From: Escherichia phage T4
Sequence record: OL964745.1
Reading direction: 5' to 3' (one strand)
Length of the DNA stretch: 64,000 bases
Position numbers and translations under genes: made by a program
Shown here: piece after piece, positions 3,159 through 58,634 of the stretch
How positions within the stretch are numbered: position 1 is the first letter of the stretch
Layout: each line of letters opens with the position of its first letter
The notes under the pieces: generated by a model
The model's database searches: none
Told to the model about the DNA's origin: nothing
Seen by the model: only the letters and a program-made list of their open reading frames with translations

Positions 3159-3940
3159 CTATAAAACGCTACGAATAGGCCCAAACATATCCATAAGCAA
3201 TTTTGCTTTTTCCAGATTGCACTTTTTAATATTAGACATGCATCCTTTAACGGATACAGCTGCGTCTTTAATTCTAGGAAATACTCGTAATAATTTTCCA
3301 GTAGTATCATATTGAAATACTGGCACATTTCTTTTCTGAGTTATCCCACGTAGATTTAGACATTTTTTGTTTAGTTGCATTAGACATCCTAGAGGGCTTT
3401 CCTATGTTATCAGAATAATATTTCCATTGAAATCCTCCAGCGGTTTTCCTTTTACCATCTACACATTGTTTAATTGAAGTTGAACAGCTATGACATATCT
3501 TCTGCAGCATCTGTAATACATCTATATTTGCGAATAAAATTTCCATTTAAATCATATTGATAAATTGGTTTTCCAGCATTTCGTCTAGCGTTAGACATGT
3601 ATTTATTATCATCTTTCCAGAACTCTTTCATGCTTTCCGATATTGAAGAAGATACAGCTGTTTTAATCCATCCATACATTATTATTTAGTCTTGTTCCGT
3701 CAGAACTATAACATCATACGAATAGCTAAAGCCAATTTAGGAAGTCTATAAATTTTAAATAATAAATGCGCGGTAAAATGTTCTTCTGGTGTCAAAAGAA
3801 CTAAATTAGTTTTATCATCTGTACCACCCATACATCTAGGAATTATATGATGTGTTTCAGTATAGTATGTCAAAAGACTTTTATCATTGCCTCTGTTTAG
3901 TCCTTTTTCGATCAGTAAATTATATGTTTAAATAATTCAT
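3159..3940 (-). pseudogene. HNH homing-endonuclease-like gene with IENR/NUMOD-type DNA-binding repeats, split over at least four frames
   Basis: MNYLNI-stop, then HNH motif ETHHIIPRCMGGTDDKTNLVLLTPEEHFTAH in another frame, then three overlapping ORFs (3488-3679, 3307-3546, 3159-3380) each carrying VxQYDxxGxLIxxFxSIxDAA / GKRKTAGGFQWKY modules. Confidence 0.5.
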
Positions 3941-3974
3941 TTTAGTTTATTTTACCAAAAAATTTATAAAGCAA

Positions 3975-35513: not shown

Positions 35514-36104
35514 ATGCTCTTTACATTTTTTGATCCGATTGAATATGCGGCCAAAACGGTGAATAAAAACGCGCCGACTATTCCTATGACAGATATTTTT
35601 AGAAACTATAAAGACTATTTTAAACGCGCTCTTGCGGGATACCGCTTACGTACTTATTATATTAAAGGTTCACCACGCCCGGAAGAATTAGCAAATGCTA
35701 TATATGGAAATCCACAGCTGTATTGGGTTTTATTGATGTGTAATGATAATTATGACCCGTATTATGGATGGATTACTTCGCAAGAAGCTGCTTATCAAGC
35801 ATCTATACAAAAATACAAAAACGTAGGTGGAGACCAAATAGTATATCATGTGAATGAGAACGGTGAAAAATTTTATAATTTAATATCATACGATGATAAT
35901 CCATATGTTTGGTATGATAAAGGCGATAAAGCTAGAAAATATCCTCAATATGAAGGAGCGCTTGCTGCGGTCGATACGTATGAAGCTGCTGTTCTTGAAA
36001 ATGAAAAACTTCGTCAAATAAAAATAATAGCAAAATCAGACATCAATTCATTTATGAACGACCTTATACGTATAATGGAGAAATCTTATGGAAATGATAA
36101 GTAA
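35514..36104 (+). CDS. 53: Baseplate wedge protein gp53
   Basis: 196-aa ORF, T4 gp53 length. Confidence 0.85.
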   Translation: MLFTFFDPIEYAAKTVNKNAPTIPMTDIFRNYKDYFKRALAGYRLRTYYIKGSPRPEELANAIYGNPQLYWVLLMCNDNYDPYYGWITSQEAAYQASIQKYKNVGGDQIVYHVNENGEKFYNLISYDDNPYVWYDKGDKARKYPQYEGALAAVDTYEAAVLENEKLRQIKIIAKSDINSFMNDLIRIMEKSYGNDK

Positions 36105-37815
36105 TAACCTTAATTGGTTTGTCGGTGTTGTTGAAGATAGAATGGACCCATTAAAATTAGGTCGTGTTCGTGTTCGTGTGGTTGGTCTGCATCCACCTCA
36201 AAGAGCACAAGGTGATGTAATGGGTATTCCAACTGAAAAATTACCATGGATGTCAGTTATTCAACCTATAACTTCTGCAGCAATGTCTGGAATTGGAGGT
36301 TCTGTTACTGGACCAGTAGAAGGAACTAGAGTTTATGGTCATTTTTTAGACAAATGGAAAACTAATGGAATTGTCCTTGGCACGTATGGTGGAATAGTTC
36401 GCGAAAAACCGAATAGACTTGAAGGATTTTCTGACCCAACTGGGCAGTATCCTAGACGTTTAGGAAATGATACTAACGTACTAAACCAAGGTGGAGAAGT
36501 AGGATATGATTCGTCTTCTAACGTTATCCAAGATAGTAACTTAGACACCGCAATAAATCCCGATGATAGACCGCTATCAGAGATTCCAACCGATGATAAT
36601 CCAAATATGTCAATGGCTGAAATGCTTCGCCGTGATGAAGGATTAAGATTAAAAGTTTATTGGGATACCGAAGGATATCCGACAATTGGTATTGGTCATC
36701 TTATCATGAAGCAGCCAGTTCGTGATATGGCTCAAATTAATAAAGTTTTATCAAAACAAGTTGGTCGTGAAATTACAGGAAATCCAGGTTCTATTACAAT
36801 GGAAGAGGCGACGACTTTATTTGAGCGTGATTTGGCTGATATGCAACGGGACATTAAATCACATTCTAAAGTAGGACCAGTCTGGCAAGCTGTCAACCGT
36901 TCTCGTCAAATGGCGTTAGAAAATATGGCATTTCAGATGGGTGTTGGTGGTGTAGCTAAATTTAACACAATGTTAACTGCTATGTTAGCAGGAGATTGGG
37001 AAAAAGCGTATAAAGCCGGTCGTGATTCATTGTGGTATCAACAAACAAAAGGCCGTGCATCCCGTGTTACCATGATTATTCTTACGGGGAATTTGGAATC
37101 ATATGGTGTTGAAGTGAAAACCCCAGCTAGGTCTCTATCAGCAATGGCTGCTACTGTAGCTAAATCTTCTGACCCTGCTGACCCTCCTATTCCAAATGAC
37201 TCGAGAATTTTATTCAAAGAACCAGTTTCTTCATATAAAGGTGAATATCCTTATGTGCATACAATGGAAACTGAAAGCGGACATATTCAGGAATTTGATG
37301 ATACCCCTGGGCAAGAACGATATAGATTAGTTCATCCAACTGGAACTTATGAAGAAGTATCACCATCAGGAAGAAGAACAAGAAAAACTGTTGATAATTT
37401 GTATGATATAACCAATGCTGATGGTAATTTTTTGGTAGCCGGTGATAAAAAGACTAACGTCGGTGGTTCAGAAATTTATTATAACATGGATAATCGTTTA
37501 CATCAAATCGATGGAAGCAATACAATATTTGTACGTGGAGACGAAACGAAAACTGTTGAAGGTAATGGAACTATCCTAGTTAAAGGTAATGTTACTATTA
37601 TAGTTGAAGGTAATGCTGACATTACAGTTAAAGGAGATGCTACCACTTTAGTTGAAGGAAATCAAACTAACACAGTAAATGGAAATCTTTCTTGGAAAGT
37701 TGCCGGGACAGTTGATTGGGATGTCGGTGGTGATTGGACAGAAAAAATGGCATCTATGAGTTCTATTTCATCTGGTCAATACACAATTGATGGATCGAGG
37801 ATTGACATTGGCTAA
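36088..37815 (+). CDS. 5: Baseplate hub / tail lysozyme gp5 (cell-puncturing device)
   Basis: 575-aa ORF; N-terminal OB-fold region, central T4-lysozyme-like domain (EMLRRDEGLRLKVYWDTEGYPTIGIGHL), C-terminal VxGxxxxxV beta-helix repeats. Confidence 0.95.
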   Translation: MEMISNNLNWFVGVVEDRMDPLKLGRVRVRVVGLHPPQRAQGDVMGIPTEKLPWMSVIQPITSAAMSGIGGSVTGPVEGTRVYGHFLDKWKTNGIVLGTYGGIVREKPNRLEGFSDPTGQYPRRLGNDTNVLNQGGEVGYDSSSNVIQDSNLDTAINPDDRPLSEIPTDDNPNMSMAEMLRRDEGLRLKVYWDTEGYPTIGIGHLIMKQPVRDMAQINKVLSKQVGREITGNPGSITMEEATTLFERDLADMQRDIKSHSKVGPVWQAVNRSRQMALENMAFQMGVGGVAKFNTMLTAMLAGDWEKAYKAGRDSLWYQQTKGRASRVTMIILTGNLESYGVEVKTPARSLSAMAATVAKSSDPADPPIPNDSRILFKEPVSSYKGEYPYVHTMETESGHIQEFDDTPGQERYRLVHPTGTYEEVSPSGRRTRKTVDNLYDITNADGNFLVAGDKKTNVGGSEIYYNMDNRLHQIDGSNTIFVRGDETKTVEGNGTILVKGNVTIIVEGNADITVKGDATTLVEGNQTNTVNGNLSWKVAGTVDWDVGGDWTEKMASMSSISSGQYTIDGSRIDIG

Positions 37816-37849: not shown

Positions 37850-38365
37850 ATGGAAGGTTCTTCTATCGACGTCACCTTTACCGCTCAATTAGAAACAGGT
37901 GAAACGTTAGTATCTATAAATATAACTAGTTACGAAGAAACTCCTGGGGTTTTAGTAGAAGAAAATCGCTTATATGGAACATATGAATCTGTATTTGGTT
38001 TCGGAAATGACGCGTTGAAATATCGTTTAGGCGATGAATTTAAAACTGCTGCTTCATGGGAAGAACTTCCTACTGATTCTGATACTCAGTTGTATTTGTG
38101 GAAAGCTCCTCAAAACCTCCAGAAGACATTCACTTACGAAGTAACATTAATATATGACTACCAAGAACAAAGTGAATCTGGGGGTTCTGGCAGTAATTCT
38201 AGGTCATCTTCTGATACTACTGAACCGACAGATCCTCCTGCTCCAGTAAGAAAAACTCTAGTTAAAAATTATACTAAAACTATAGTTGGAAATTGGAGTC
38301 GTTGGGCTAATAAACTGAGAAAATGCCTATGCAAGACCATAAATATTTTTATTTGTATTCAATAA
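37850..38365 (+). CDS. 5.1: Hypothetical protein gp5.1
   Basis: Start at ATG 37850 with GGAG SD; the track ORF start at 37787 overlaps gp5. Confidence 0.5.
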   Translation: MEGSSIDVTFTAQLETGETLVSINITSYEETPGVLVEENRLYGTYESVFGFGNDALKYRLGDEFKTAASWEELPTDSDTQLYLWKAPQNLQKTFTYEVTLIYDYQEQSESGGSGSNSRSSSDTTEPTDPPAPVRKTLVKNYTKTIVGNWSRWANKLRKCLCKTINIFICIQ

Positions 38366-38910
38366 CTAATAAAACAACAGAAAAAATTTATGTAGGCGTC
38401 CACAAAACTTCAAATTTGGATGATGGGTATGGGTTCTGGCGTTGCCATTAAAAATGCCATTAAAATATGGCATAGATAATTTTTATAAGCATATTATAAA
38501 ATTCTTTGAATCTGAAAAAGCTATATGACGCAGAGGCAGAAATAGTCACAGAGGAATTTGTTAAATCTAAGAAAACTTATAATATGAAACTAGGCGGTAT
38601 CGGTGGCTTCCCAAAACATAACACAGCGGGTGCTAAAAATGGATTTTACGGTAAATCTCATTCGCGTGAAACTAGATTGAAAATTAGCATTAAATCGTCT
38701 AGAAAAAGAGGGCCTAGAGGGCCTAGAGGTAAAACTCTGAAGATGTGTGGCGCCAATAACCCAAGGTATGGCAAAATAGCCCCTAATGCTAAATCTGTTA
38801 TCAACGGCGTTTTATATAAAAGTATTAAAATCGCAGCTAAAGCTCTTAATATAAATTATAGTACCTTAAAGGGGCGAGTTAAAGCGGGGTATTATAAATG
38901 CCAGGATTAA
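38329..38910 (+). pseudogene. segC: GIY-YIG homing endonuclease (segC-like) split by three +1 frame shifts
   Basis: MQDHKYFYLYSITNKTTEKIYVGVHKTSNLDDGY (frame 1), MGSGVAIKNAIK (frame 2), KYGIDNFYKHIIKFFESEKAI (frame 3), then 134-aa ORF 38506-38910 in frame 1. Confidence 0.55.
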
Positions 38911-39191
38911 GTTATGATAAGTGTGTTACTGCTGGCCATGAAGCGTGGCCTCCAACAGTTGTGAATGCTACACAAAGTAAAGTATTCACTGGAGGAATTG
39001 CTGTTCTCGTAGCAGGCGATCCAATTACAGAACATACAGAAATTAAAAAGCCGTATGAAACACATGGCGGAGTGACACAACCTAGAACTTCTAAGGTATA
39101 TGTCACTGGAAAGAAAGCTGTTCAAATGGCTGATCCAATATCATGCGGTGATACTGTGGCTCAGGCATCATCTAAAGTATTCATTAAATAG
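38898..39191 (+). CDS. 5.4: PAAR-repeat spike-tip protein gp5.4
   Basis: 97-aa ORF, Gly-rich PAAR-like repeats. Confidence 0.8.
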
Positions 39192-39199
39192 GATTTAAA

Positions 39200-41182
39200 A
39201 TGGCAAATACCCCTGTAAATTATCAATTAACAAGAACAGCAAATGCTATTCCCGAGATATTCGTCGGGGGTACATTTGCTGAAATAAAACAAAACCTCAT
39301 TGAATGGCTTAATGGCCAAAATGAATTTTTGGATTATGATTTTGAAGGCTCAAGATTAAACGTTCTGTGTGACCTTTTAGCTTATAATACATTATACATT
39401 CAGCAGTTTGGTAATGCTGCTGTGTATGAAAGCTTTATGCGTACTGCTAACTTACGAAGTTCAGTTGTTCAAGCTGCACAAGATAACGGATATTTACCTA
39501 CTTCAAAATCCGCTGCGCAGACCGAAATTATGTTAACATGCACTGACGCATTGAATAGGAATTACATTACTATTCCTCGCGGAACTCGCTTTTTAGCATA
39601 TGCAAAAGATACTTCTGTTAATCCATATAACTTCGTTTCTACCGAAGACGTTATTGCTATTCGTGATAAAAATAACCAATATTTTCCGCGTTTAAAATTG
39701 GCCCAGGGACGTATAGTAAGAACTGAAATCATTTATGATAAATTAACACCTATTATCATTTATGATAAAAATATTGATAGAAACCAGGTTAAATTATACG
39801 TTGATGGAGCGGAATGGATTAACTGGACGAGAAAGTCAATGGTTCATGCTGGTTCAACATCAACGATTTACTATATGCGTGAAACTATTGATGGAAACAC
39901 TGAATTCTATTTTGGTGAAGGTGAAATTTCTGTTAATGCTTCTGAAGGAGCTTTGACCGCTAATTATATCGGAGGTATTAAACCTACTCAGAACTCTACG
40001 ATTGTTATTGAGTACATTAGTACTAATGGTGCTGACGCGAACGGAGCAGTCGGATTTTCATACGCAGATACATTAACAAATATAACTGTCATCAATATTA
40101 ATGAAAATCCAAACGATGATCCAGATTTTGTTGGGGCAGATGGAGGCGGTGATCCAGAAGATATTGAGCGTATTCGCGAATTGGGTACTATTAAACGCGA
40201 AACCCAACAACGATGCGTAACTGCGACTGACTATGATACATTCGTTTCAGAGAGATTTGGTTCTATTATTCAAGCTGTTCAGACTTTCACTGATTCTACT
40301 AAACCTGGGTATGCATTTATTGCTGCTAAACCTAAATCAGGATTGTATTTAACTACCGTACAGCGTGAAGATATTAAAAATTATCTCAAAGACTATAATT
40401 TAGCTCCTATTACGCCATCAATTATTTCTCCTAATTATCTTTTTATTAAGACTAATTTAAAAGTCACATATGCTTTAAATAAACTGCAAGAATCCGAACA
40501 GTGGCTTGAAGGTCAAATAATTGATAAAATTGATCGCTATTATACCGAAGATGTAGAAATTTTTAACTCGTCTTTCGCTAAATCTAAGATGTTGACATAT
40601 GTAGATGATGCAGATCATTCTGTCATTGGTTCATCAGCGACTATTCAAATGGTTCGTGAAGTACAAAACTTCTATAAAACGCCTGAAGCGGGTATTAAAT
40701 ACAATAATCAAATAAAAGATCGTTCTATGGAATCTAATACGTTTTCATTTAATTCTGGACGAAAGGTTGTAAATCCTGATACTGGTTTAGAAGAAGATGT
40801 ATTATATGACGTTCGTATAGTATCAACAGACCGAGATTCTAAAGGAATTGGTAAAGTTATTATTGGTCCATTTGCTTCTGGCGATGTTACAGAAAATGAA
40901 AACATTCAGCCGTATACAGGCAACGATTTTAACAAATTAGCAAATTCTGATGGACGCGACAAATACTATGTTATCGGTGAAATAAATTATCCAGCTGATG
41001 TGATTTATTGGAATATCGCTAAAATTAATTTAACATCTGAAAAATTTGAAGTTCAGACCATTGAATTATATTCTGACCCAACCGATGATGTTATCTTTAC
41101 TCGCGATGGTTCACTGATTGTATTTGAAAATGACTTACGTCCACAATACTTAACTATCGATTTGGAGCCTATATCACAATGA
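39200..41182 (+). CDS. 6: Baseplate wedge protein gp6
   Basis: 660-aa ORF, T4 gp6 length. Confidence 0.9.
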   Translation: MANTPVNYQLTRTANAIPEIFVGGTFAEIKQNLIEWLNGQNEFLDYDFEGSRLNVLCDLLAYNTLYIQQFGNAAVYESFMRTANLRSSVVQAAQDNGYLPTSKSAAQTEIMLTCTDALNRNYITIPRGTRFLAYAKDTSVNPYNFVSTEDVIAIRDKNNQYFPRLKLAQGRIVRTEIIYDKLTPIIIYDKNIDRNQVKLYVDGAEWINWTRKSMVHAGSTSTIYYMRETIDGNTEFYFGEGEISVNASEGALTANYIGGIKPTQNSTIVIEYISTNGADANGAVGFSYADTLTNITVININENPNDDPDFVGADGGGDPEDIERIRELGTIKRETQQRCVTATDYDTFVSERFGSIIQAVQTFTDSTKPGYAFIAAKPKSGLYLTTVQREDIKNYLKDYNLAPITPSIISPNYLFIKTNLKVTYALNKLQESEQWLEGQIIDKIDRYYTEDVEIFNSSFAKSKMLTYVDDADHSVIGSSATIQMVREVQNFYKTPEAGIKYNNQIKDRSMESNTFSFNSGRKVVNPDTGLEEDVLYDVRIVSTDRDSKGIGKVIIGPFASGDVTENENIQPYTGNDFNKLANSDGRDKYYVIGEINYPADVIYWNIAKINLTSEKFEVQTIELYSDPTDDVIFTRDGSLIVFENDLRPQYLTIDLEPISQ

Positions 41183-44100
41183 CAGTAAAAGCACCTTCAG
41201 TCACTAGTCTCAGAATTTCCAAGTTATCCGCAAATCAGGTGCAAGTACGCTGGGATGACGTTGGTGCTAATTTCTACAAAATAGTAGAAATCGCTGAGAC
41301 AAAAACAAACTCGGGGGAAAATCTCCCGAGTAATCAATATCGTTGGATTAATTTAGGATATACAGCAAATAATAGTTTCTTTTTTGATGATGCTGATCCA
41401 TTAACAACATACATTATTAGAGTAGCCACAGCTGCGCAAGATTTTGAGCAGTCTGATTGGATTTATACCGAAGAGTTTGAAACTTTTGCTACAAATGCTT
41501 ATACATTTCAAAACATGATTGAAATGCAATTAGCCAATAAATTCATTCAGGAAAAATTTACTCTTAATAATTCTGATTATGTTAATTTTAATAATGATAC
41601 TATAATGGCTGCATTGATGAATGAATCATTCCAATTCAGCCCATCGTATGTTGATGTTTCATCAATAAGTAATTTTATTATTGGTGAAAATGAGTATCAT
41701 GAAATACAAGGTTCTATTCAGCAAGTATGTAAGGATATTAACCGAGTTTATTTGATGGAATCAGAAGGAATTCTATATCTTTTTGAGCGCTATCAACCTG
41801 TAGTTAAAGTATCCAATGATAAAGGACAAACCTGGAAAGCTGTAAAGCTCTTCAATGACCGTGTAGGATATCCTTTATCTAAGACAGTATATTACCAATC
41901 TGCGAACACAACATACGTTCTAGGATACGACAAGATTTTCTATGGCCGCAAATCTACTGATGTTAGATGGTCAGCCGATGATGTCAGATTTAGTTCTCAG
42001 GATATAACATTTGCTAAACTTGGCGACCAATTACATCTAGGATTTGATGTAGAAATTTTTGCCACTTACGCGACTTTACCAGCGAATGTATACCGCATTG
42101 CAGAAGCTATTACTTGCACCGATGATTACATTTACGTTGTCGCCAGAGACAAAGTTAGATACATAAAAACGAGTAATGCACCTATAGATTCTGATCCATT
42201 ATCTCCAACATATTCGGAAAGACTTTTTGAACCTGATACCATGACTATAACCGGAAATCCTAAAGCAGTATGCTATAAAATGGATTCTATCTGTGATAAA
42301 GTTTTTGCTCTTATTATTGGTGAAGTTGAAACATTAAATGCTAATCCTAGAACATCAAAAATAATTGATTCCACTGATAAAGGAATATATGTTTTAAATC
42401 ATGACGAAAAAACATGGAAAAGAGTTTTTGGTAATACCGAAGAAGAAAGAAGACGTATTCAACCCGGATATGCGAATATGTCAACTGACGGTAAATTAGT
42501 TTCTCTGTCTTCGAGTAATTTTAAATTTTTAAGTGATAATGTTGTTAATGACCCTGAAACTGCAGCAAAATATCAGTTAATTGGCGCTGTTAAATATGAA
42601 TTTCCTCGTGAATGGTTAGCTGATAAGCATTATCATATGATGGCATTTATAGCGGATGAAACATCTGATTGGGAGACTTTTACTCCTCAACCAATGAAAT
42701 ACTACGCAGAACCATTCTTTAACTGGTCTAAAAAATCTAACACACGTTGTTGGATAAACAACTCTGATAGAGCTGTGGTAGTTTATGCTGATTTAAAATA
42801 CACTAAAGTTATAGAAAATATTCCGGAAACATCACCAGATAGATTAGTTCATGAATACTGGGATGATGGTGATTGCACTATAGTAATGCCAAATGTCAAA
42901 TTCACTGGATTTAAAAAATACGCATCAGGAATGCTTTTCTATAAAGCCTCCGGTGAAATAATTTCTTACTATGATTTTAACTATCGTGTGAGAGATACAG
43001 TAGAAATTATTTGGAAGCCAACTGAAGTATTTTTAAAAGCATTTTTACAAAACCAAGAGCATGAGACTCCTTGGTCACCAGAAGAAGAGCGTGGATTAGC
43101 TGACCCTGATTTAAGACCATTAATTGGCACAATGATGCCTGATTCTTATTTGTTACAGGATTCGAATTTTGAGGCATTTTGCGAAGCATATATTCAGTAT
43201 CTTTCTGATGGATATGGAACTCAATACAATAATTTACGAAATTTAATTCGTAACCAATATCCACGAGAAGAGCACGCATGGGAATATTTGTGGTCAGAGA
43301 TATATAAAAGAAACATTTATTTAAATGCTGATAAACGCGATGCTGTTGCGAGATTCTTTGAATCACGTAGCTATGATTTTTATTCTACTAAAGGAATTGA
43401 AGCATCATACAAGTTTCTTTTTAAAGTTCTTTATAATGAAGAAGTTGAAATTGAAATTGAATCTGGGGCTGGTACTGAATATGATATAATCGTTCAATCT
43501 GATTCTTTGACTGAAGATTTAGTAGGACAAACGATTTATACGGCAACAGGAAGATGTAATGTTACTTATATAGAAAGAAGCTATTCTAATGGTAAATTGC
43601 AATGGACCGTAACTATTCATAATCTTTTGGGACGATTAATTGCTGGTCAAGAAGTTAAAGCAGAAAGACTCCCTAGTTTTGAAGGCGAAATTATTCGTGG
43701 GGTTAAAGGAAAGGATTTGCTTCAAAACAATATAGACTATATTAATAGAAGTAGATCATACTATGTAATGAAAATTAAATCCAATTTACCTTCTTCCCGC
43801 TGGAAATCTGACGTTATTCGTTTTGTTCATCCAGTAGGATTTGGATTTATAGCAATTACCCTTTTAACAATGTTTATTAATGTTGGTTTAACTCTTAAAC
43901 ATACAGAGACTATAATTAATAAATACAAAAACTATAAATGGGATTCTGGATTGCCTACTGAATATGCCGACAGAATAGCTAAATTAACTCCAACCGGTGA
44001 AATTGAGCATGATTCAGTAACAGGCGAAGCAATTTATGAGCCTGGCCCAATGGCTGATGTAAAATATCCTCTTCCTGATGACTATAATGCTGAAAATAAT

Positions 44101-44277
44101 AATTCAATATTTCAAGGTCAATTGCCGTCTGAACGACGTAAATTAATGAGTCCTTTATTTGATGCATCTGGAACAACATTTGCGCAATTTAGAGATTTAG
44201 TTAATAAACGTCTAAAAGATAATATAGGAAATCCAAGAGACCCTGAAAATCCAACACAGGTTAAAATAGATGAATGA
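41179..44277 (+). CDS. 7: Baseplate wedge protein gp7
   Basis: 1032-aa ORF, T4 gp7 length; ATGA overlap with gp6. Confidence 0.9.
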   Translation: MTVKAPSVTSLRISKLSANQVQVRWDDVGANFYKIVEIAETKTNSGENLPSNQYRWINLGYTANNSFFFDDADPLTTYIIRVATAAQDFEQSDWIYTEEFETFATNAYTFQNMIEMQLANKFIQEKFTLNNSDYVNFNNDTIMAALMNESFQFSPSYVDVSSISNFIIGENEYHEIQGSIQQVCKDINRVYLMESEGILYLFERYQPVVKVSNDKGQTWKAVKLFNDRVGYPLSKTVYYQSANTTYVLGYDKIFYGRKSTDVRWSADDVRFSSQDITFAKLGDQLHLGFDVEIFATYATLPANVYRIAEAITCTDDYIYVVARDKVRYIKTSNAPIDSDPLSPTYSERLFEPDTMTITGNPKAVCYKMDSICDKVFALIIGEVETLNANPRTSKIIDSTDKGIYVLNHDEKTWKRVFGNTEEERRRIQPGYANMSTDGKLVSLSSSNFKFLSDNVVNDPETAAKYQLIGAVKYEFPREWLADKHYHMMAFIADETSDWETFTPQPMKYYAEPFFNWSKKSNTRCWINNSDRAVVVYADLKYTKVIENIPETSPDRLVHEYWDDGDCTIVMPNVKFTGFKKYASGMLFYKASGEIISYYDFNYRVRDTVEIIWKPTEVFLKAFLQNQEHETPWSPEEERGLADPDLRPLIGTMMPDSYLLQDSNFEAFCEAYIQYLSDGYGTQYNNLRNLIRNQYPREEHAWEYLWSEIYKRNIYLNADKRDAVARFFESRSYDFYSTKGIEASYKFLFKVLYNEEVEIEIESGAGTEYDIIVQSDSLTEDLVGQTIYTATGRCNVTYIERSYSNGKLQWTVTIHNLLGRLIAGQEVKAERLPSFEGEIIRGVKGKDLLQNNIDYINRSRSYYVMKIKSNLPSSRWKSDVIRFVHPVGFGFIAITLLTMFINVGLTLKHTETIINKYKNYKWDSGLPTEYADRIAKLTPTGEIEHDSVTGEAIYEPGPMADVKYPLPDDYNAENNNSIFQGQLPSERRKLMSPLFDASGTTFAQFRDLVNKRLKDNIGNPRDPENPTQVKIDE

Positions 44278-45274
44278 TTCAAGTGTTATCTATCGTGCGA
44301 TAGTTACTTCAAAATTTAGAACAGAAAAAATGTTGAATTTTTATAATTCAATTGGAAGTGGTCCGGATAAAAACACTATCTTTATCACATTTGGAAGATC
44401 AGAACCGTGGTCATCAAATGAAAATGAGGTGGGCTTTGCCCCACCTTATCCAACCGATTCTGTATTAGGCGTAACTGACATGTGGACGCATATGATGGGA
44501 ACAGTAAAAGTTCTTCCATCAATGCTTGATGCTGTTATTCCTCGCAGAGATTGGGGAGATACTAGATATCCGGATCCATACACATTTAGAATTAACGATA
44601 TTGTAGTGTGTAACTCAGCTCCTTACAACGCTACTGAATCAGGCGCTGGTTGGTTAGTGTATCGTTGTTTAGATGTTCCTGATACCGGAATGTGTTCAAT
44701 AGCATCTTTAACTGATAAAGATGAATGCCTTAAGTTAGGTGGAAAATGGACTCCTTCTGCTAGGTCAATGACTCCGCCTGAAGGTCGAGGAGATGCTGAA
44801 GGAACAATTGAACCCGGAGACGGGTATGTGTGGGAATATCTATTTGAGATTCCGCCTGATGTATCTATAAATAGATGCACGAATGAATATATCGTGGTTC
44901 CTTGGCCTGAGGAATTAAAAGAAGACCCGACTAGATGGGGATATGAAGATAATCTCACTTGGCAACAAGATGATTTTGGATTAATTTACCGTGTTAAGGC
45001 AAATACTATCCGTTTTAAAGCATATTTAGATTCAGTTTATTTTCCTGAAGCTGCATTGCCAGGAAATAAAGGATTTAGACAAATATCAATAATCACGAAT
45101 CCTCTTGAAGCTAAAGCTCATCCAAATGACCCAAACGTTAAAGCTGAAAAGGATTATTATGACCCAGAAGATTTAATGAGGCATTCGGGTGAAATGATTT
45201 ATATGGAAAATAGGCCACCTATTATTATGGCAATGGATCAAACAGAAGAAATCAATATTCTGTTTACATTTTAA
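44270..45274 (+). CDS. 8: Baseplate wedge protein gp8
   Basis: 334-aa ORF. Confidence 0.9.
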   Translation: MNDSSVIYRAIVTSKFRTEKMLNFYNSIGSGPDKNTIFITFGRSEPWSSNENEVGFAPPYPTDSVLGVTDMWTHMMGTVKVLPSMLDAVIPRRDWGDTRYPDPYTFRINDIVVCNSAPYNATESGAGWLVYRCLDVPDTGMCSIASLTDKDECLKLGGKWTPSARSMTPPEGRGDAEGTIEPGDGYVWEYLFEIPPDVSINRCTNEYIVVPWPEELKEDPTRWGYEDNLTWQQDDFGLIYRVKANTIRFKAYLDSVYFPEAALPGNKGFRQISIITNPLEAKAHPNDPNVKAEKDYYDPEDLMRHSGEMIYMENRPPIIMAMDQTEEINILFTF

Positions 45275-53485: not shown

Positions 53486-56626
<3,141 letters not shown>

Positions 56627-56654
56627 TATTAAAGCATATTAAAGAGGATTAAAA

Positions 56655-58634
56655 ATGACTTTATTATCTCCGGGCATTGAGCTCAAAGAAACTACGGTTC
56701 AAAGCACCGTAGTTAATAACTCTACTGGTACAGCAGCTTTGGCCGGTAAATTCCAGTGGGGTCCTGCTTTTCAGATTAAACAGGTTACAAATGAAGTAGA
56801 TTTAGTTAATACTTTTGGTCAACCAACCGCTGAAACTGCTGACTATTTTATGTCTGCGATGAATTTCTTGCAGTACGGAAATGACTTACGAGTAGTTCGT
56901 GCTGTTGATAGAGATACCGCTAAAAACTCATCGCCAATTGCTGGTAATATTGAATACACAATTTCTACCCCAGGTAGTAGCTATGCGGTTGGAGATAAAA
57001 TCACGGTCAAATATGTTTCAGATGATATTGAAACTGAAGGTAAAATTACTGAAGTAGACGCAGATGGAAAAATTAAGAAAATTAATATTCCTACTGCAAA
57101 AATTATCGCTAAAGCGAAAGAAGTCGGTGAATATCCAACACTAGGTTCTAACTGGACTGCGGAAATTTCTTCATCTTCCTCTGGTTTAGCTGCAGTAATA
57201 ACTCTTGGAAAAATTATTACTGATTCTGGTATTTTATTAGCTGAAATTGAAAATGCTGAAGCTGCTATGACAGCGGTTGACTTTCAAGCAAATCTTAAAA
57301 AATATGGAATTCCAGGAGTAGTAGCGCTTTATCCAGGCGAATTAGGCGATAAAATTGAAATTGAAATCGTATCTAAAGCTGACTATGCAAAAGGAGCTTC
57401 TGCATTACTCCCAATTTATCCAGGTGGTGGTACTCGTGCATCTACTGCTAAAGCAGTGTTTGGATATGGACCGCAAACTGATTCACAGTACGCTATTATA
57501 GTTCGTCGTAATGATGCTATTGTTCAAAGCGTTGTTCTTTCAACTAAGCGTGGTGAAAAAGATATTTACGATAGTAACATCTATATCGATGACTTTTTCG
57601 CAAAAGGTGGTTCAGAATATATTTTTGCAACTGCACAAAACTGGCCAGAAGGCTTCTCTGGAATTTTAACTCTGTCTGGTGGATTATCATCAAATGCTGA
57701 AGTAACAGCAGGAGATTTGATGGAAGCTTGGGACTTCTTTGCTGACCGTGAATCTGTTGACGTTCAACTGTTTATTGCAGGTTCTTGTGCCGGTGAATCT
57801 TTAGAAACAGCATCTACTGTCCAAAAACACGTCGTTTCAATTGGGGATGCTCGCCAAAATTGCTTAGTATTGTGCTCTCCTCCGCGTGAAACTGTAGTTG
57901 GAATTCCTGTAACCCGTGCTGTTGATAACTTAGTCAATTGGAGAACTGCGGCAGGTTCATACACTGATAATAACTTTAATATCAGTTCAACCTATGCAGC
58001 AATTGATGGTAACTATAAGTATCAGTATGACAAATATAATGATGTGAATCGTTGGGTTCCATTAGCAGCTGATATTGCTGGTTTATGCGCAAGAACTGAT
58101 AACGTATCTCAGACTTGGATGTCTCCAGCTGGTTATAATCGTGGTCAGATTCTTAACGTTATTAAACTTGCTATTGAAACTCGCCAGGCTCAGCGCGACC
58201 GTTTATACCAAGAAGCTATCAACCCGGTAACCGGTACAGGTGGTGATGGTTACGTATTGTATGGTGATAAAACAGCTACTTCTGTTCCTTCTCCATTTGA
58301 TCGTATTAACGTTCGTCGTCTGTTTAATATGTTGAAAACGAATATCGGACGTAGTTCAAAATATCGTTTGTTCGAATTAAACAACGCGTTTACTCGTTCA
58401 TCATTCCGCACAGAAACTGCCCAGTACTTACAGGGAATTAAAGCTCTCGGTGGAATTTATGAATATCGTGTAGTTTGCGATACAACAAATAACACTCCGT
58501 CAGTAATTGATAGAAATGAGTTTGTTGCAACATTCTACATCCAACCGGCTAGAAGCATTAACTACATTACCTTAAACTTCGTAGCAACTGCTACTGGTGC
58601 AGATTTCGATGAGTTAACTGGTCTTGCTGGTTAA
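56655..58634 (+). CDS. 18: Tail sheath protein gp18
   Basis: 659-aa ORF. Confidence 0.95.
   Translation: MTLLSPGIELKETTVQSTVVNNSTGTAALAGKFQWGPAFQIKQVTNEVDLVNTFGQPTAETADYFMSAMNFLQYGNDLRVVRAVDRDTAKNSSPIAGNIEYTISTPGSSYAVGDKITVKYVSDDIETEGKITEVDADGKIKKINIPTAKIIAKAKEVGEYPTLGSNWTAEISSSSSGLAAVITLGKIITDSGILLAEIENAEAAMTAVDFQANLKKYGIPGVVALYPGELGDKIEIEIVSKADYAKGASALLPIYPGGGTRASTAKAVFGYGPQTDSQYAIIVRRNDAIVQSVVLSTKRGEKDIYDSNIYIDDFFAKGGSEYIFATAQNWPEGFSGILTLSGGLSSNAEVTAGDLMEAWDFFADRESVDVQLFIAGSCAGESLETASTVQKHVVSIGDARQNCLVLCSPPRETVVGIPVTRAVDNLVNWRTAAGSYTDNNFNISSTYAAIDGNYKYQYDKYNDVNRWVPLAADIAGLCARTDNVSQTWMSPAGYNRGQILNVIKLAIETRQAQRDRLYQEAINPVTGTGGDGYVLYGDKTATSVPSPFDRINVRRLFNMLKTNIGRSSKYRLFELNNAFTRSSFRTETAQYLQGIKALGGIYEYRVVCDTTNNTPSVIDRNEFVATFYIQPARSINYITLNFVATATGADFDELTGLAG

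Follow-up and report, generated by a model that had tools for sequence, protein, structure and literature searches.

In nature, the homing endonuclease SegC cuts segC-less relatives near the junction of genes 5.1 and 5.4, and its gene is copied in by recombinational repair. Wild-type T4T (HM137666) carries segC as a single 597-bp ORF that encodes 198 aa (locus T4Tp152, ADJ39869.1); the ORF shares 20 bp with the end of 5.1 and also overlaps the start of 5.4. In T2, 5.1 directly abuts 5.4 and segC is absent. The gene has been described as a free-standing optional insertion, and SegC is listed as an active endonuclease (Edgell et al. review, PMC2988022).

T4 has also been the subject of CRISPR/Cas9 iterative genome reduction (CiPGr), which yielded clone T4_583L as its smallest T4 genome (Yuan et al. 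2022, PMC9825161). Under CiPGr, T4 went through up to roughly 600 passages on E. coli with SpCas9 and a plasmid library that provided up to eight guides per non-essential gene and 50-bp homology arms (PMC9825161). Besides the planned edits, large unplanned deletions were reported (nrdG-D, nrdC.11-mobD.3 and vs.3-denV), together with 1322 unplanned one- or two-base deletions, found in T4 only and regarded as 'probably' CRISPR-escape mutations; the small deletions were seen in population reads, and the genomes were assembled de novo (PMC9825161). It is also known that T4 rejoins Cas9 breaks via minihomology of 3-13 nt (Wu et al. 2021, PMC8262927).

The window analyzed here, that is, the whole stretch of 64,000 nucleotides from Escherichia phage T4 record OL964745.1, holds, between 5.1 and 5.4, a GIY-YIG/NUMOD3 gene that is split over three reading frames and that, by its sequence, is T4 segC itself. 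We consider it quite probable that segC was broken by deletions during CiPGr passage and that these were most likely kept as Cas9-escape mutations.

The split gene between 5.1 and 5.4

The locus and its neighbors are laid out in the window as follows.

36088-37815: gene 5, baseplate hub/lysozyme
37850..38365, + strand: gene 5.1, C-terminus altered and lengthened by the 2-bp deletion 38322/38323
38323..38910, + strand: whole segC remnant, T4T segC (597 bp, 198 aa) minus 9 internal bases
38323..38451, + strand: segC piece of 42 codons, the sole piece with the native start codon
38506..38910, + strand: 134-aa ORF, C-terminal two thirds of SegC, without the catalytic domain
38898..39191, + strand: gene 5.4 (PAAR spike-tip protein), overlapping the segC stop codon, intact except for S2P
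39200-41182: gene 6

The initial annotation had described a GIY-YIG gene lying in pieces over three frames between 5.1 and 5.4, and six-frame translation together with the ORF list reproduced this arrangement. Frame 1 reads MPMQDHKYFYLYSITNKTTEKIYVGVHKTSNLDDGY and closes with GFWRCH and a stop codon; MGSGVAIKNAIK stands in the next frame and KYGIDNFYKHIIKFFESEKAI in the one after it, whereupon the reading returns to frame 1 as the 134-aa ORF (38506-38910). The 42-codon piece contains 36 native residues, including the 'GIY' half KIYVGV, before GFWRCH and the stop codon at 38449-38451. Between 38449 and 38530 there are stops in every frame, and segC is thereby interrupted.

In a megablast search of the phage collection, 36 T4-type phage records match positions 38200-39000 at full length, and the locus is annotated in them as segC or as a homing endonuclease; T2-type records cover just 31% of the query. 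The absence of segC at 5.1/5.4 in T2 confirms segC as a free-standing optional insertion. The split gene has the position of T4 segC (5.1, segC, 5.4) and its domain order, namely an N-terminal GIY-YIG domain, then NUMOD3, then a C-terminal DNA-binding region, and its DNA is the same except for nine in-gene bases and one synonymous change. It differs from T4 segC by three breaks in the frame, by the loss of one Ile codon and by 2 bp missing just upstream of the start. The same 5.1 and 5.4 flanks agree with the earlier placement of a disrupted homing endonuclease gene within the baseplate cluster from gene 5 to gene 6. The earlier label 'segC-like' was correct as to GIY-YIG similarity but fell short on identity, since after repair of the nine bases the DNA is that of segC itself.

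The lesions were mapped against wild-type T4T by a four-way alignment and a base-by-base difference list.

38322/38323, + strand: 2-bp deletion immediately before the segC start codon and inside the end of gene 5.1
38427/38428 (tract 38426..38430), + strand: 2-bp deletion, TATAT to TAT, first frameshift
38461/38462 (tract 38458..38465), + strand: 2-bp deletion, A6 to A4, second frameshift
38523/38524 (tract 38522..38525), + strand: 2-bp deletion, TG/GT lost in GCTATGTATGAC, third frameshift, original frame regained
38797/38798 (tract 38795..38801), + strand: in-frame 3-bp deletion, TTATTAT to TTAT, one Ile of VIING (...SVIING...) lost
38901, + strand: T>C, synonymous in segC (Cys), S2P in gp5.4

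Alignment to T4-family segC, a check that had been proposed, explains the frame changes by three 2-bp deletions relative to T4T. The 3-bp deletion, the 2-bp deletion at 38322/38323 and the T>C at 38901 had not been noticed before. Three losses of 2 bp amount to -6, so that the last segC piece is again in frame 1. When TA, AA, TG and TTA (the nine in-gene bases) are put back, the 198-aa SegC is restored exactly, with one synonymous difference in the DNA. The three 2-bp deletions lie within 100 bp and scatter the catalytic domain over three frames; the tract of the first codes for Y-M in the catalytic GYMGSG ('YIG') motif. Upstream, the deletion at 38322/38323 changes the end of gp5.1 from the wild-type ...NKLRKYAYARP to ...NKLRKCLCKTINIFICIQ, each followed by the stop, whereby the last six residues are replaced and seven are added.

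The near-duplicate TGCCATTAAAAATGCCATTAAAATATGGCA that had been remarked on is present at about 38443-38472; it is normal T4 coding sequence (AIKNAIKKYG) from which two A's have been lost. This region also forms a 7-bp hairpin (38454-38473) with the arms ATGCCAT/ATGGCAT; its loop is the A-run in which the second segC deletion lies. Scans with Rfam and for promoters and terminators around the locus, on both strands, returned the coding-sequence hairpin alone; the closest late-promoter consensus, TATAAATA at 37915, lies within gene 5.1.

Because the shifts cancel out and the pieces follow the order of SegC, one might suppose that three programmed +1 ribosomal frameshifts yield the full-length protein. 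This is next to inconceivable: segC of wild-type T4 is one frame, the 'shift sites' are missing bases, a zero-frame stop stands six codons past the first lesion, and no recoding-like signal was found around the locus.

A fragmented segC has appeared in database records before. In the historical T4 reference (NC_000866/AF158101) the gene is split into 'segC + 5.3', and that split comes down to a single missing C in GGGCCTAGAGGGCCTAGAGG, where the window has the intact T4T version. The comparison places the C missing from the reference, in NC_000866 2051-2221, against window 38720-38735. As the C is present in the window, in T4T and in re-sequenced T4 records, '5.3' is most likely an error of the old reference.

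Domain content was assessed against Pfam cut-offs of 20.4 bits for NUMOD3, 25 for SegE_GIY-YIG (PF19835) and 22.6 for PF01541. The repaired 198-aa SegC reaches 28.3 bits for NUMOD3 and 26.4 bits for SegE_GIY-YIG, both above the cut-off, and 18.8 bits for PF01541, below it; the profile search of the repaired translation thus found the GIY-YIG similarity that the initial annotation had anticipated. The GIY-YIG domain rises above the cut-off only once the missing bases are restored, the 42-aa N-terminal ORF scoring 16.8 bits. The residue-for-residue fit to the segB-like gene was also borne out, with 53% identity to the N-terminal domain of T4 SegB over 101 residues and no gaps. The 134-aa ORF, previously called NUMOD-like, scores 29.6 bits for NUMOD3 and retains this motif plus an I-TevI-like DNA-binding region, while the matches to I-TevI_DNA-bd (19-24 bits) and NUMOD1 are both below their cut-offs; a start signal of its own is not obvious. 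The Pfam profile scan found no complete catalytic domain in any ORF actually present in the window. With the YIG half of the active site and every catalytic residue after it read in the wrong frame, the segC allele of the window is predicted to lack nuclease activity.

Sister clones and the origin of the lesions

Of the GenBank records, MZ375356.1 ('Mutant Escherichia phage T4 clone T4_583L') matches the locus best, at 99.8%. All three 2-bp frameshifts, the 3-bp deletion and the T>C recur in its segC, so that four of the five deletions at the segC locus are common to the two clones and the deletion at 38322/38323 is extra in the window. In the T4_583L record only the 134-aa ORF is annotated there, as 'SegC homing endonuclease'. 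Across the window, 41 small deletions are common to T4_583L and each clone has private ones, which is the pattern of accumulating, heritable mutations. The window is less reduced than T4_583L: e.2-e.8 and ipIII are still present, and less has been lost in the nrdG-nrdD, nrdC.11-mobD and vs deletions.

In T4_3t3 (OL964735.1), an early clone from the same laboratory, segC is intact and the whole locus equals T4T. Its annotation reuses T4583L tags, and it has a rare gene-7 allele in common with the window. In this allele (window 41278-41283), judged against T4T and the T4 reference, the loop of a perfect hairpin is inverted, from TTTCTAC-TATTTT-GTAGAAA to TTTCTAC-AAAATA-GTAGAAA, and gp7 changes at two codons, from YF to KI; the inversion is a textbook quasipalindrome template-switch change. 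Elsewhere in the phage collection the inverted allele occurs only in T4_583L and T4_3t3, and its confinement to these two and the window makes it a marker of that laboratory's T4 stock. The segC changes are absent in the early clone T4_3t3 and present in the late clone T4_583L and in the window (38322/38323 in the window only). Because segC is intact in T4_3t3, all six segC changes arose during passage, and a laboratory origin of the segC lesions under CiPGr is well supported.

The initial annotation had offered decay of the gene as one explanation. Homing endonuclease genes do decay once fixed in a population, and segC is optional among T-even phages, T2 having none. Natural pseudogenization in a wild T4-like phage is nevertheless extremely improbable, given that among the 36 phage records at the locus only a CiPGr clone has these deletions, that the window is essentially T4 outside the engineered lesions, and that the early clone from the same stock is intact.

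Deletions across the window

Over its 64 kb the window follows T4T 34701-105861 collinearly, with an identity above 99.5%, and differs from it by four large and 55 small deletions. Three of the large ones correspond to the published nrdG-D, nrdC.11-mobD.3 and vs.3-denV deletions.

Window junction 8057/8058: large deletion of T4T 42789-44834, nrdG to I-TevII
Window junction 17827/17828: large deletion of T4T 55541-57586, nrdC.11 to mobD.1
Window junction 22996/22997: large deletion of T4T 62777-64822, vs.3 to vs.8
Window 12154/12155: large deletion of 905 bp, nrdC.3 removed precisely, its last 22 nt (overlapping nrdC.2) left

The removal of nrdC.3 looks like a designed CiPGr 'cassette-gene' edit. 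The other three deletions are each exactly 2046 bp long, and none has flanking microhomology; the repeated size could reflect a design artifact, chimeric donors or the construction of the record. T4_583L has identical left end points for the nrdG and nrdC.11 deletions, but there the deletions are longer.

The 55 small deletions remove 1-4 bp each: 38 are of 2 bp (about 70%), 12 of 3 bp, four of 1 bp and one of 4 bp. Each takes out a unit of an A/T-rich tandem tract of 1-4 nt, and there are no insertions. The spectrum consists almost wholly of -2 and -3 events, e.g., TTT to T, and the hit genes contain neither -1 events nor substitutions. A position-specific composition profile revealed no motif flanking the small deletions. 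Nearly all of them lie in dispensable genes, with 10 in mobB, eight in nrdC.4, four each in segC, tk.4 and nudE, and three each in segB, nrdC.1 and rI.1. The structural block that begins with gene 6 and runs up to gene 23, where the window ends, carries one small deletion only, of 1 bp, at the end of gene 21. It falls in an A-run at window 62204, between genes 21 and 22 and on or close to the stop of gene 21. Tandem tracts of the same kind number in the hundreds in genes 6, 7, 18 and 23, and all are untouched.

The densest cluster in the window is mobB with its flanks (3218-3974), which has 12 small deletions in about 800 bp and no substitutions; the adjoining dispensable genes a-gt.2 to a-gt.5 have no small deletions. 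The segB gene, as segC, has exactly three 2-bp deletions, and the paralogous TATAT(G) tract, which encodes Y-M of GYMGSG, has lost 2 bp in both segB (29965) and segC (38428). Restoration of the frame by three losses of 2 bp is seen in segC and also in segB and nrdC.1. Over the multiply hit genes, five of nine have a net shift of 0 modulo 3 against three expected, which is not significant.

Mis-sequencing was the other explanation that the initial annotation had offered. If the lesions were errors of sequencing or assembly, segC would really be intact; every lesion does lie in a low-complexity A/T tract, and the historical T4 reference does have its 1-bp discrepancy elsewhere in segC ('segC' + '5.3'). 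Against this, the identical lesions, including the three frameshifts, occur in T4_583L, which was isolated and assembled independently, the equivalent tracts in genes 6, 7, 18 and 23 are untouched, the deletions fall mostly in dispensable genes, and the published work reports the deletions in population reads as well as in de novo assemblies (PMC9825161). An artifact of AT bias or low coverage was rejected, since the genes richest in AT are not those affected (e.3, e.5 and tk.1 are unhit while nudE, rI.1 and nrdC.2 are hit), and hits bear no relation to the G+C content of the gene. The untouched structural tracts, the AT content, the de novo assembly and the agreement of the two clones indicate that the deletions are real, and an error that hides an intact segC is very improbable.

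Proposed Cas9 escape and possible collateral repair

In the proposed mechanism, a T4 lineage would have been passaged hundreds of times on E. coli with SpCas9 and guides against dispensable genes. Small deletions in A/T tracts, one tandem unit each, would arise during passage, and those that alter Cas9 target sites in segC would be retained as CRISPR-escape mutations. Such selection would explain why segC was hit further after the first frameshift had killed the gene. We infer Cas9 escape as the selective cause of the segC deletions.

Several of the segC changes can be assigned to possible target sites.

38427/38428 deletion: positions 0-5 of possible TGG/GGG-PAM protospacers
38523/38524 deletion: positions 10-12 of a possible AGG-PAM protospacer
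38901 T>C: position 2 of a possible AGG-PAM protospacer

Altogether, five of the six segC changes can be placed in a possible NGG protospacer, either at its PAM or at positions 1-12. About 70% of randomly chosen positions would fit as well, and with a possible NGG site about every 16 bp, chance alone could produce the agreement seen in segC. The deletion at 38322/38323 is inside no possible NGG protospacer. The T>C at 38901 sits 2 nt from its AGG PAM, and the S2P that it causes hits the PAAR spike-tip protein gp5.4; this neighbor in the essential region may have borne the cost of a segC escape mutation.

Over the whole set of 55 small deletions, 13 lie at distance 0 from an NGG cut site against 13.5 expected from matched tandem-tract sites, and a strand-aware histogram of PAM offsets has no protospacer peak. 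The density of possible NGG sites, one about every 16 bp, gives such enrichment tests low power. At least eight of the 55 small deletions are outside every possible NGG protospacer, examples being those at T4T 38198, 50883 and 51255. That each lesion is an escape mutation is plausible for most of the window deletions but cannot hold for all of them.

A different line of evidence comes from recurrence. Among 10 window-private deletions, five lie within 12 bp of a different T4_583L deletion, where 0.53 would be expected (P about 5e-5). Independent recurrence at this distance in two clones points to site-specific selection, and several of the recurrent sites lie in clear PAM-proximal seeds or destroy a PAM. 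None of the five recurrent sites is in segC itself.

The spectrum of the deletions bears on how they formed. The dominance of -2 events, without -1 events or substitutions in the hit genes, is unlike the classic escape spectrum, and it resembles joining at homologies of 1-4 nt more than polymerase slippage. The escape mutations described by Wu et al. 2021 (PMC8262927) are similar in that dispensable T4 genes under Cas9 pressure acquired deletions bounded by short repeats. They differ from those of the window in size, being tens to thousands of bp with repeats of 3-13 nt spanning the cut, as opposed to 1-4 bp, and in position, since many small deletions of the window are in no NGG protospacer.

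The lesions might have been acquired in the laboratory yet without selection, as collateral micro-deletions from the repair of repeated Cas9 breaks that then spread by hitch-hiking or drift; the route would be joining at very short homology or error-prone repair synthesis around targeted genes. This fits with the removal of a tandem unit of 1-4 nt by all deletions, with the lack of insertions and of substitutions in hit genes, with the positions of the deletions, which show no association with NGG sites and in several cases are over 20 nt away from the nearest GG or CC, and with the known rejoining of Cas9 breaks in T4 at minihomologies of 3-13 nt (PMC8262927). It is less easily reconciled with independent hits at most 12 bp apart in two clones, several of them in PAM-proximal seeds, and 12 hits in about 800 bp of mobB against none in its neighbors would require strong targeting or selection. 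On balance, we regard unselected collateral damage as possible but unlikely.

A further proposal, distinctly unlikely in our judgment, combines a break-associated micro-deletion process of T4 with, separately, a frame restoration in segC that was kept for the translation of 5.4. The micro-deletions may record T4-specific short-homology end-joining or error-prone synthesis that spreads from Cas9 cuts, a process that would differ from simple PAM or seed escape. The restoration by three losses of 2 bp might have been retained as translation still runs into the overlapping 5.4 start.

The experiment that broke segC has been published, as have the gene and its family, and the finding is accordingly already known. 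The locus is a footprint of published T4 genome engineering and holds no new segC biology. It is important to note, as a caution, that from its letters alone the locus mimics natural decay of a homing endonuclease gene, or recoding, in a baseplate operon. Of modest mechanistic interest is that T4 under Cas9 pressure accumulated deletions mostly of 2 bp in A/T tracts, some of them outside any target.
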